Below are positions 59,401-62,072 of a DNA stretch of 64,000 bases, in pieces. Within the stretch, counting starts at the first letter, position 1. Every line of letters begins with the position of its first letter. This stretch comes from Escherichia coli O127:H6 str. E2348/69 (GTDB taxonomy: Bacteria; Pseudomonadota; Gammaproteobacteria; Enterobacterales; Enterobacteriaceae), in assembly GCF_000026545.1 (NCBI RefSeq), contig NC_011601.1. One strand, written 5' to 3'. Made by a program: the position numbers.

Positions 59401-62072
59401 TTAAATAATTAAACGCCGAAAAAATAAACACACTTTATCGATACACACAAAAATAATAATAAATATAGTTATCATCGCAAAAGAGATTACTGTCACTTTC
59501 ACATATTTCTGAGTTACCGTATTCTCATGGTTTCTTTTTATTTATAAGGAATACCCCTGTGCGACAACGGACTATTGTATGCCCTTTGATTCAAAATGAT
59601 GGTGCTTATTTGCTGTGTAAAATGGCCGACGATCGCGGCGTTTTCCCCGGTCAATGGGCGCTTTCGGGTGGCGGCGTGGAGCCTGGCGAACGAATTGAAG
59701 AGGCACTACGCCGCGAAATTCGCGAAGAGCTGGGAGAACAGCTGCTTTTGACAGAAATCACGCCGTGGACCTTCAGCGATGATATTCGCACCAAGACGTA
59801 TGCAGATGGTCGCAAAGAAGAGATTTATATGATTTACCTGATTTTTGACTGCGTTTCTGCCAACCGAGAAGTGAAAATAAACGAAGAGTTTCAGGACTAC
59901 GCGTGGGTAAAACCTGAAGATCTGGTGCATTATGATTTGAATGTTGCCACCCGAAAAACGTTACGTTTGAAAGGTCTTCTTTAACAATGATGACAGCCAT
60001 CACTGGCTGTCAGATTGAAAATTTAGTGGTTAACGAATTCCCCATCCAGATAAACTTTGCCTTTTTCCACATGCATGACTAAACCATCCAGATAATCAGG
60101 TTTAAATGTCGCATCACGCTTATCTTTAGCAATATATGTCAGGCAATGATTATGGGTAAAAATAACGATATTTTTATCAGGTGCTTTGCGTTGTAAGTCT
60201 TTAATTGCACTATAAATCTCATTACCGCATTGAAGAAATCGTTTATCTACCGTCAGCTTTTTACCCGCCGAAAACCAGGTCGCCGACTGAATAGTCCGGA
60301 CGGTATTACTGGAATAGAGATCGAAATCAGGGATATCAGCACTAAAAGCGTTGCCCAGTTCTCGGGCATCCTGGGTACCTTTGACCGTAATACCTGTTTT
60401 ATCTGACAAGCATTGATTGGTTGAACGATCGCAACGTTCAGCATGGCGAAACAAAACGACAACCGGGTGCTGCTGTGCCAGTCTGGCCAGTGTTTTATTG
60501 TCGATGCGTGGCAAACCATTGCTACTCCAGGCGGCATGAGTACCCAGTCCGGCAATTGCAGCGAGCGCCAGTAAAATGATGAAATATTTTTTTGACTTCA
60601 ACGAAGATCGGCAAAAAGCTAACACGTAAACTCCACCTATAGACAAGCGCAACCAGACAATTACCGTGAAATTGAGCGACTTTTCTGGCGATAATTAGCA
60701 GTTGGTGTAATATTAAAAATCCTATGATGCCGGCAAAATGCCTCAAAATTTTGCCAAATGCAAAGTCTAAATAAGAAAAAATATAAAAATTTCAATATTT
60801 ACGTCTAATATTAGTTTCTTAAGGTTAAGTTAATATTCTATCCTTAAAATTTTGCTCCAAATGGCAAAATATACACAACACTCTTTATAGCAAATATAAG
60901 TGGACAGGTATTCAATGACGGATGGAAAAAAAATGTCAGGATTTTTGCCTTTTTCGCGACCAGCAATGGGCGTAGAGGAACTCGCTGCAGTTAAAGAGGT
61001 TCTCGAATCCGGTTGGATCACAACCGGTCCGAAGAATCAGGCGCTTGAACAAGCTTTTTGCCAGTTGACGGGAAATCAGCATGCCATCGCGGTCAGTTCA
61101 GCCACCGCCGGAATGCATATCACGCTAATGGCGTTGGAAATTGGCAAGGGCGATGAAGTGATTACGCCTTCCCTGACCTGGGTTTCAACCCTCAATATGA
61201 TTTCCTTGCTGGGTGCAACGCCGGTAATGGTGGATGTCGACCGCGATACGCTGATGGTCACGCCTGAAGTGATCGAAGCAGCCATTACACCACGCACTAA
61301 AGCCATCATTCCGGTGCATTATGCCGGTGCGCCAGCAGATATTGACGCCATTCGCGCCATTGGCGAACGTTACGGCATCGCAGTTATCGAAGATGCTGCC
61401 CATGCCGTCGGTACGTATTACAAAGGGCGACATATTGGCGCAAAAGGTACTGCTATTTTTTCGTTTCACGCCATCAAAAATATTACCTGTGCGGAAGGTG
61501 GCCTGATTGTTACTGATAATGAAAATCTTGCCCGCCAGCTGCGGATGCTGAAATTTCACGGTCTGGGTGTCGATGCCTATGACAGACATACCTGGGGCCG
61601 TGCACCGCAGGCTGAAGTCTTAACGCCGGGCTATAAGTACAATCTGACCGATATTAACGCCGCGATTGCCCTGACACAGTTAGTCAAATTAGAGCACCTC
61701 AACACCCGTCGGCGCGAAATTGCCCAGCAATATCAGCAAGCACTGGCAGCTCTCCCCTTTCAGCCATTAAGCCTTCCCGCCTGGCCGCACGTTCACGCCT
61801 GGCATCTGTTTATTATTCGTGTCGATGAACAACGTTGTGGTATCAGTCGCGATGCGTTGATGGAAGCGTTAAAAGAAATAGGCATTGGTACCGGGTTACA
61901 TTTCCGCGCCGCTCACACACAAAAATATTATCGCGAGCGTTTTCCCACGCTGTCGTTACCGAATACCGAATGGAATAGTGAACGCATCTGTTCGTTGCCG
62001 CTGTTCCCGGATATGACCACCGCCGATGCCGACCGCGTCATCACAGCCCTTCAGCAACTCGCAGGACAATAA

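Follow-up and report, generated by a model that had tools for sequence, protein, structure and literature searches.

The arn operon is the chromosomal path to Ara4N-modified lipid A and thereby to lower polymyxin and colistin susceptibility. The arnB gene is described in the literature as BasRS-controlled; E. coli pmrG (ais), which is transcribed away from arnB across a shared spacer, is treated as PmrA-activated, and in serum ais falls along with arn, basRS, eptA and ugd. How is the control of two divergent genes laid out in a single spacer, and does ais possess a PmrA site of its own? We address this question in a window of 64,000 nucleotides (the whole stretch of DNA analysed) from E. coli O127:H6, E2348/69 lineage, in which the spacer and its neighbors are arranged as follows:

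60023 to 60625, minus strand: ais (pmrG), LPS core heptose(II)-phosphate phosphatase (PGAP annotation of the 100% identical E2348/69 genome; NCBIfam NF011945).
60626 to 60932, no strand assigned: ais-arnB divergent intergenic region, 307 bp, 31% GC.
60933 to 62072, plus strand: arnB, UDP-4-amino-4-deoxy-L-arabinose aminotransferase, 379 aa, intact.
62076 to 63044, plus strand: arnC, 322 aa, intact.
63044 to 64000, plus strand: 5' part of arnA, with the reading frame open to the window end.

A first-pass annotation had named the flanking genes as ais and arnBCA and the start of the arn operon as intact. The PGAP annotation of the identical genome and the match of Ais to NF011945 (391 bits, against a cutoff of 142) bear out the gene names, and the operon start is indeed intact, with complete ArnB and ArnC reading frames and arnA open from 63044. 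The arnB product is 98% identical to its K-12 ortholog; a second in-frame ATG of arnB, at 60915, corresponds to the start annotated in MG1655. The ais gene begins with GTG at 60625, preceded by a GGAG Shine-Dalgarno sequence. The gap between the two genes had been described as AT-rich and 260 bp long. Its AT-richness holds (31% GC vs. 51% in the window, falling to 25.5% in 60700-60899), while its length does not: the limits 60653-60914 are those of open reading frame extension, and the annotated spacer spans 60626-60932.

Within this spacer lies a single outstanding regulatory element:

60818 to 60834, plus strand: PmrA/BasR box CTTAAG-GTTAA-GTTAAT, in the arnB sense; a unique exact match with the top matrix score, conserved, and published for EPEC O125ac:H6.

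The clear PmrA box that had been reported here is found at exactly these positions and on the plus strand, with the sequence CTTAAGGTTAAGTTAAT. Its half-sites (60818-60823 and 60829-60834) form a direct repeat, 5 bp apart. The box departs from YTTAAK-N5-YTTAAK at one position, a G at the first base of half-site 2, and is a perfect match to the form CTTAAG-N5-XTTAAT of Salmonella PmrA boxes that have been verified experimentally (PMC3973317).

Could such a sequence be a chance TTAA-rich match in AT-rich DNA, devoid of a regulatory role? The low GC content of the spacer (31%) would favor this view, as would the loose YTTAAK pattern, which, with one mismatch allowed, occurs in the window at chance frequency (3 matches vs. 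2.9 expected) and is uninformative. By contrast, the exact form CTTAAG-N5-NTTAAT has one match in 64 kb against 0.00 expected, and none in 100 shuffles. A weight matrix derived from 31 unique non-Escherichia arnB boxes ranks the 17-mer first among approximately 128,000 window positions, at 20.7 bits, with the runner-up at 15.3 bits. Conservation speaks the same way. A plus-strand match with at most one mismatch to the relaxed pattern is present within 400 nt upstream of arnB in 76/80 Enterobacterales loci, and in 5,412 of the 5,426 complete E. coli genomes, identity across a 60-mer around the box does not fall below 95%; the box is thus far from being unconserved in relatives, the finding that had been named as grounds for rejecting it. 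Position, orientation and -10 spacing are kept across Enterobacterales, and the site is published as the arn PmrA site. These conservation data already refute a chance origin, and we accord it virtually no credence. Two further matrix matches, at 2499-2515 inside yojI and at 8227-8243 in the rcsD-ompC spacer, were treated as chance.

The box had also been thought to be positioned for arnB, and the downstream sequence supports this:

60845 to 60850, plus strand: predicted arnB -10 hexamer TAAAAT, 10 nt downstream of the box.

This 10-nt spacing also prevails when 79 upstream regions are aligned on the best box of each: 10 nt past the box, the hexamer has T in 90%, A in 96% and T in 93% of the regions at positions 1, 2 and 6, and the layout box-10 nt-TAnnnT recurs upstream of arnB in most of the 78 other Enterobacterales loci. 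The arrangement is that of a PmrA-box promoter, in which the box takes over the role of a -35 element, with its end about 10 bp before the -10 hexamer, and with the start site assigned by prediction. The gene that follows belongs to the PmrA regulon and is orthologous to those whose promoters have demonstrated PmrA binding, and arnB-arnC-arnA is intact. The predicted arnB transcript starts near 60854-60857, so that some 76-79 nt of 5' UTR would precede the ATG at 60933. A generic scan for sigma-70 promoters and terminators across 60500-61050 returned two promoter-like matches vs. 1.6 expected and no terminator; since its thresholds exclude activator-dependent promoters, the promoter scan carries no information. 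Neither the arnB nor the ais PmrA-dependent promoter is present in a table of E. coli start sites mapped under non-inducing conditions (Kim 2012, Table S1).

Well-studied relatives share this design. The pbgP(pmrH/arnB)-pmrG locus of Salmonella enterica is orthologous, with the same divergent pair and a box, CTTAATGTTAATTTAAT, in the same orientation; where E. coli has G as the last base of half-site 1 and the first base of half-site 2, Salmonella has T in both cases. As in E. coli, the Salmonella box lies 115 nt from the arnB ATG, and TAGGGT follows it 10 nt later. The pmra-box of Klebsiella pneumoniae pbgP (PDB 4S05; cryo-EM 8JO2) likewise consists of two hexamers, 5 bp apart, that replace the -35 element, as in the arnB box described here, and TACATT lies 10 nt beyond it (locus L037). 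PmrA binds the Klebsiella box head-to-tail and recognizes TAA bases; the box has been footprinted, with a Kd of 45 nM (PMC3973317). In the cryo-EM scaffold of PmrA with RNA polymerase on Klebsiella pbgP, the sequence is native to -13 and DNA is modelled from -42; the box-to--10 geometry found here agrees with this scaffold. The Klebsiella box differs in its sequence, CTTAAT-N5-CCTAAG, with a weaker second half-site, and in its distance of about 171 nt from the ATG. Klebsiella pbgP also has an extra PhoP box and a second promoter, reportedly absent in the E. coli/Salmonella lineage, and no adjacent ais. In PhoB-dependent pho-box promoters, too, a direct-repeat box stands in for the -35 element about 10 bp upstream of the -10 hexamer, whereas these promoters differ in recognition sequence, regulator and signal. 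Structural comparison of PmrA with PhoB is discussed in PMC3973317.

The closest precedent is the arn promoter of EPEC O125ac:H6 (Fernandez-Ciruelos et al., 2023; PMC10729948), in which 60 bp around the box are identical to the window:

60797 to 60856, plus strand: 60 bp that exactly match the published EMSA probe (PMC10729948), with the PmrA box and the -10 hexamer inside.

Phosphorylated QseB shifts this 60-bp arn probe, and the arn PmrA consensus was identified in EPEC "with a slight modification" (PMC10729948). That study centers on QseB binding and QseBC-PmrAB cross-talk, and ais is outside its scope. The QseB consensus GYRACAATWA-N4-TT has no good match inside the published probe. The best match nearby overlaps the probe by 6 nt and has three mismatches, which is chance level: with three mismatches or fewer, the window holds 279 matches vs. 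265 expected; a match with one mismatch lies elsewhere in the spacer, at 60688-60703.

The region is, in all likelihood, a canonical BasR(PmrA)-dependent arnBCADTEF promoter whose spacer is shared with ais, and whose box most probably controls ais as well. In the mechanism that we propose, a phosphorylated PmrA dimer would bind the direct repeat CTTAAG-N5-GTTAAT (60818-60834) head-to-tail, the box would substitute for a -35 element, ending 10 bp before the -10 hexamer TAAAAT (60845-60850), and PmrA would aid sigma-70 RNA polymerase to initiate arnB near a predicted start at 60857. The trigger would be Fe3+, Al3+ or mild acid, sensed by BasS, or else the protection of PmrA-P by PmrD, and the outcome would be the addition of Ara4N to lipid A; QseB may bind the same arn fragment as well. 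The sequence, uniqueness, conservation and spacing of the box were computed here; the binding geometry of PmrA, QseB binding and the co-regulation of ais with the BasR regulon come from the literature.

The PmrA site of arnB and its role are already known, of textbook standing and published for EPEC, and constitute no new biology. To the extent that an intact, consensus-strength box can tell, this EPEC-lineage strain presumably keeps a normal inducible arn circuit, with no hint of constitutive resistance in the cis-element; inducibility stays a presumption because basRS lies outside the window. The comparison nonetheless yields a mildly useful by-product that concerns ais: the probable use of a single box by ais and arnB, and a quantised distance between this box and a second conserved element.

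On the ais side, the first-pass annotation had seen no second unambiguous box, and consensus and matrix scans likewise find none in 13/13 ais loci. Each of the 13 ais upstream regions contains a single strong matrix site. Degenerate versions of YTTAAK-N5-YTTAAK in the ais-proximal half of the spacer reach only 8-9 of the 12 positions or at most 11 bits and consist of half-sites only. When both strands of the 13 regions were scanned with the matrix for a second box on the ais strand, no site exceeded 12 bits except re-readings of the main box.

The main box itself is a better candidate. Three loci that have no adjacent arn operon, those of Intestinirhabdus alba, C. rodentium and a "C. freundii" assembly, still carry it upstream of ais at undiminished strength (16.6-21.6 bits); in C. 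tructae, it is retained upstream of ais beside a PMT/ArnT-like gene. The single site has thus been preserved after the loss of one divergent partner, as expected of a shared site. In the two pairs compared, Ais proteins from these three arn-less loci share only 55-72% identity, so this retention is long-term. The arnB-side -10 hexamer is also kept in the arn-less lineages (TAGAAT, TAATAT, TATATT), so retention of the box does not point uniquely to ais. Nevertheless, its persistence next to ais and its fixed distance to the second conserved element, detailed below, argue that ais and arnB probably share one box. A box that acts in both directions is a better explanation for the lack of a separate ais site than a hidden degenerate one. 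In strain EC5931, an IS1 element lies between the box and ais.

Where would ais transcription start? Two elements on the ais strand are candidates:

60735 to 60763, minus strand: conserved ais-proximal block ("Block 2"), comprising TTGCAT at 60763-60758, a 17-nt spacer and CATTTT at 60740-60735.
60792 to 60797, minus strand: alternative, box-proximal ais -10-like hexamer TATTGA, which starts 21 nt past the CTTAAG half-site; weak evidence.

Within Block 2, GCATTTT (60735-60741) is invariant in 13/13 ais loci, the -35-like TTGCNT is present in 12/13, and the internal spacing is gapless in 12/13. Exactly 44 or 54 bp separate the box from Block 2 in 12/13 ais loci (54 bp in this window), while the intervening sequence is not alignable across the loci and the segment from Block 2 to the ais start codon varies from 67 to 107 nt. 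In Salmonella, Block 2 is likewise present, at 44 bp vs. the 54 bp of E. coli, and reads TTTAAG where E. coli has TTTGAG. The two distances differ by one helical turn. We infer that Block 2 is probably the ais core promoter, most likely read as TTGCAT-17 nt-CATTTT (60763-60735, minus strand); if so, ais transcription is predicted to start near 60728, with a 5' UTR of about 103 nt. The box, which most probably gives ais its PmrA control, would then be centered at about -98 in Escherichia (54 bp) or -88 in Salmonella (44 bp), two positions that share one helical face. The start sites of both transcripts and the mode of box action on ais are deduced from these arrangements. A hairpin in Block 2, GGCAAAAT-N8-ATTTTGCC, is unconserved outside Escherichia and was rejected as a structural element; a 14-nt direct repeat, CCTCAAAATTTTGC / CCTTAAAATTTTGC, was set aside as a probable AT-rich coincidence.

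Other readings of the ais side have to be set against this one. A degenerate PmrA site of its own in the ais-proximal half could be sought at TTTGAG-GCATT-TTGCCG inside Block 2 or at TTTAATATTACACCAAC (60701-60717, minus strand). The former gains some appeal from TTTAAG, which is kept beside GCATTTT in several genera (E. albertii, Salmonella, some Citrobacter), yet E. coli itself reads TTTGAG; the latter is the window's fourth best matrix match, at 11.0 bits, yet the motif is absent from the top matches in E. albertii, E. marmotae and other genera, and would fall downstream of the predicted ais start. Both lack a second half-site and agree with the consensus no better than by chance, at 8-9 of the 12 positions specified. 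As the ais loci also show nothing over 12 bits other than the main box and its re-readings, a private ais site seems quite improbable.

A less remote, if still unlikely, scenario would make Block 2 the site of another regulator or a 5' UTR element, with ais transcribed from a box-proximal promoter (60797-60792) and the box centered at about -41. At the aligned position, I. alba and S. diarizonae have a perfect TATAAT and S. enterica has GATAAT; of the 12 loci whose spacing is 44 or 54 bp, 11 start this hexamer with TA. Because of its palindromic TTAA cores, the box can be read on the ais strand too, at 7-21 bits, and both strand readings score equally in the arn-less "C. freundii" locus. The invariance of GCATTTT, moreover, exceeds what a weak -10 element needs. 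Against this stand the E. coli hexamer TATTGA, a poor -10 that sits within an A-tract/T-tract, the final T present in only 6/12 loci, a spacing of 20 nt vs. the family's canonical 10 nt, and the lack of a conserved TAnnnT 10 nt out on the ais side. Block 2 matched no known factor's motif, and an Rfam search of 59900-61300 at E<=1 found no RNA family. The evidence for the hexamer as an ais -10 is weak. Such a promoter, if used, is predicted to start ais near 60785.

Returning to Block 2 as the probable ais core promoter, the box might be a two-way, phase-locked element, serving as a -35 substitute for arnB and activating ais from about -88/-98, with Block 2 held 44/54 bp away; we regard this as possible, if doubtful. 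The module of box, arnB-side -10 hexamer and Block 2 persists whole even where the neighboring arn operon has been lost, which, on this reading, would imply either that the arnB-side promoter has a second role, so far unrecognised, or that an additional factor binds the invariant GCATTTT. Because Block 2 is stricter than the usual weak -10, it could instead bind another factor. An upstream position at -88 or -98 in reverse orientation is a non-canonical geometry for OmpR/PhoB-family activators.

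The region between the divergent genes ais and arnB carries the usual arnB promoter, a well-characterised one under PmrA/BasR control, and the cis-element of this promoter shows no departure from the norm. Gene coordinates follow PGAP, as annotated for the identical region of E2348/69. Over its last 25 kb, the window has 100% identity to just three assemblies, each from E. coli O127:H6 or E2348/69; of 5,416 E. coli genomes, nearly all contain the 441 bp around the box region with at least 95% identity.

Features of the ais-arnB locus in the window
60023-60625, minus strand: ais (NCBIfam NF011945, 391 bits vs. 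a cutoff of 142)
60626-60932: ais-arnB spacer, 307 bp
60763-60735, minus strand (ais direction): Block 2, conserved in 13 ais regions
60818-60834, plus strand: PmrA box CTTAAGGTTAAGTTAAT, read directly in the sequence
60845-60850, plus strand: predicted arnB -10 element TAAAAT, 10 nt after the box, from the signature in aligned loci
60933-62072, plus strand: arnB, full length, 98% identical to K-12
62076-63044, plus strand: arnC, 322 aa
from 63044, plus strand: arnA, open up to the window end

The first-pass annotation, made from sequence alone, described an AT-rich gap of 260 bp at 60653-60914; the spacer is AT-rich (31% GC vs. 51% in the window), but these limits, drawn from ORF extensions, are too narrow. 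The start of the arn operon is intact, as had been supposed. Two starts are possible for arnB: the in-frame ATG at 60915 (MTDGKKMSG...) yields the 385-aa form of MG1655 and the PGAP start yields 379 aa; the upstream ATG and a GGAAA motif are kept in Escherichia, Citrobacter, and Salmonella.

The PmrA box lies exactly where it had been read. It has one mismatch to YTTAAK-N5-YTTAAK, a loose pattern that alone proves nothing because, at one mismatch, it has three matches in the window vs. 2.9 expected. The box matches exactly the CTTAAG-N5-XTTAAT of experimentally verified Salmonella boxes (PMC3973317); no other exact match occurs in the 64 kb, and 100 shuffles produced none. When scored with a weight matrix derived from 31 unique boxes upstream of arnB in species other than Escherichia, the 17-mer ranks first among about 128,000 window positions (20.7 bits); the runner-up (15.3 bits) falls within the yojI coding sequence. 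Another sequence with one mismatch to the strict box, CTTAAGAATAAGTTATT at 8227-8243 on the minus strand (9.9 bits), is located in the rcsD-ompC spacer, which contains micF and OmpR sites, and is probably a chance or OmpR-related match.

The first-pass annotation had made the box depend on its conservation in related genomes; it is conserved and therefore stands. Among 80 Enterobacterales loci from an ArnB scan of species-representative genomes, 76 carry a plus-strand box that deviates from the relaxed pattern at no more than one position and lies at most 400 nt upstream of arnB; for most loci of Escherichia, Citrobacter, and Salmonella, the box-ATG distance is 115-126 nt. Of 5,426 E. coli genomes, 1,787 carry an identical copy of a 60-mer spanning the box and 5,412 a copy of at least 95% identity, and the K-12 difference falls outside the box and outside the -10. 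Placement of the box for arnB is likewise borne out: when the window and 78 of the 80 loci are anchored on the best box, the hexamer exactly 10 nt past it has T at position 1 in 90%, A at position 2 in 96%, and T at position 6 in 93% of the 79 sequences, the signature of a -10 element. This layout agrees with that of the Klebsiella pbgP (arnB) promoter, in which the PmrA box reportedly stands in for the -35 element and is footprinted by PmrA (Kd 45 nM); the cryo-EM scaffold keeps native sequence to -13, and the complex is modelled from -42. In Citrobacter amalonaticus, a called 66-aa ORF (MAILVILQVAGALALLLGPSLGFALSG...; L084:995-1195, minus strand) with a hydrophobic N-terminal half separates arnB from its PmrA-dependent promoter; NCBIfam gave no match to this ORF.

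A literature search with the box sequence located a 60-bp EMSA probe (PMC10729948; PLoS Pathog 2023) identical to window 60797-60856. In that study of EPEC O125ac:H6, the arn regulatory region carries the PmrA consensus ‘with a slight modification’, phosphorylated QseB shifts the arn fragment, and a pmrA qseC double mutant expresses arnB and eptA at constitutively raised levels. Elsewhere in the literature, arnBCADTEF is described as under BasRS control and E. coli pmrG (ais) as activated by PmrA; in an ExPEC strain in serum, ais falls jointly with arn, basRS, yjdB/eptA, and ugd. The PmrA box of the arnB promoter had thus been described before. Within the EMSA probe there is no good match to the published QseB consensus, GYRACAATWA-N4-TT; GCGATAATTAGCAGTT at 60688-60703 (plus strand), outside the probe, has one mismatch, being among only four sites with at most one mismatch on both strands of the whole window; in K-12 this site has two mismatches, and E. 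albertii does not conserve it.

As in the first reading, no second box for ais was found. A matrix scan of the ais-proximal half of the window spacer gave half-site-level matches only: the best ais-side candidate, TTTAATATTACACCAAC at 60701-60717 (minus strand), scores 11.0 bits, and the next is the main box read in reverse (10.5 bits). Since the fetched genomes place ais beside arnB only in Escherichia, Salmonella, and a few Citrobacter, Ais homologues were used to enlarge the set to 13 upstream regions. Each has one strong site, the arnB-sense box, and a conserved second PmrA site is found in none of the 13 when both strands are scanned. The box can also be read on the ais strand because its TTAA cores are palindromic; the two readings are equal in score (21.6 vs. 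21.4 bits) at the ‘C. freundii’ locus.

Three loci have no arn operon beside ais:
Intestinirhabdus alba: menE-pmrD-ais, no adjoining arn
C. rodentium: menE-ais, no adjoining arn
‘C. freundii’ assembly: menE-ais, no adjoining arn

In C. tructae (L089), ais diverges not from arnB but from a 486-aa PF02366 (PMT/ArnT-like) gene; the PmrA box there is of full strength, and 10 nt beyond it lies TACTCT, pointing toward that gene. All four loci keep the box at 16.6-21.6 bits. Two pairs of Ais proteins from the arn-less loci were compared, with identities of only 55% and 72%, so retention is long-term, which argues that the box may be used by ais. The case for retention due to ais alone is weakened because the arnB-side -10 also persists, at the canonical 10-nt spacing, in the arn-less loci L085, L086, and L090 (TAGAAT, TAATAT, TATATT). 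In C. rodentium, an arnB-start remnant, ATGGCTGAAGG, directly follows the -10.

All 13 ais regions share a second block, Block 2, which in the ais direction reads TTGCNT, 17 nt, CATTTT; GCATTTT is present in 13/13, TTGCNT in 12/13, and the internal spacing is gapless in 12/13. The distance between the box and Block 2 is exactly 54 bp in seven sequences (four Escherichia and three Citrobacter), exactly 44 bp in five (two Salmonella, I. alba, C. rodentium, and the ‘C. freundii’ assembly), and 41 bp in C. tructae; the sequence in between hardly aligns, and Block 2 lies a variable 67-107 nt from the ais start codon. On the simplest reading, Block 2 would be the ais core promoter, with conserved -35 and -10 elements and a variable spacer. 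Alternatively, ais could be transcribed from a box-proximal promoter, with a -10-like hexamer that starts 21 nt past the CTTAAG half-site: for this hexamer, I. alba and S. diarizonae have TATAAT and S. enterica has GATAAT, but E. coli has TATTGA, and the ais side lacks a conserved TAnnnT at the canonical 10 nt from the box in the 13 regions. With Block 2 as the core promoter, the box would be approximately 88 or 98 bp upstream of the predicted ais start, and either spacing would place it on the same helical face; this mode of box action on ais we infer from sequence.

Rfam found no RNA families in 59900-61300, and a generic promoter and terminator scan was uninformative. The E. coli hairpin GGCAAAAT-N8-ATTTTGCC is not conserved outside Escherichia and was rejected as a structural element. 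A 14-nt direct repeat, with copies 101 nt apart at 60741-60754 (CCTCAAAATTTTGC, inside Block 2) and 60842-60855 (CCTTAAAATTTTGC, covering the arnB -10), is probably an AT-rich coincidence. A plus-strand transcription start assigned to arnB (MG1655 v2 position 2363241; Table S1 in Kim et al., 2012) converts to approximately window 60224 (plus strand), within the ais coding sequence and antisense to it, 691 nt upstream of arnB; the printed upstream sequence ends there and contains TATAAAT.

In E. coli EC5931, a blood isolate (L091, NZ_CP104592.1), an IS1 is inserted between ais and arnB directly upstream of the PmrA box, at the equivalent of window 60817/60818, cutting the box off from ais and Block 2; this insertion is a natural test of the ais need for the box.
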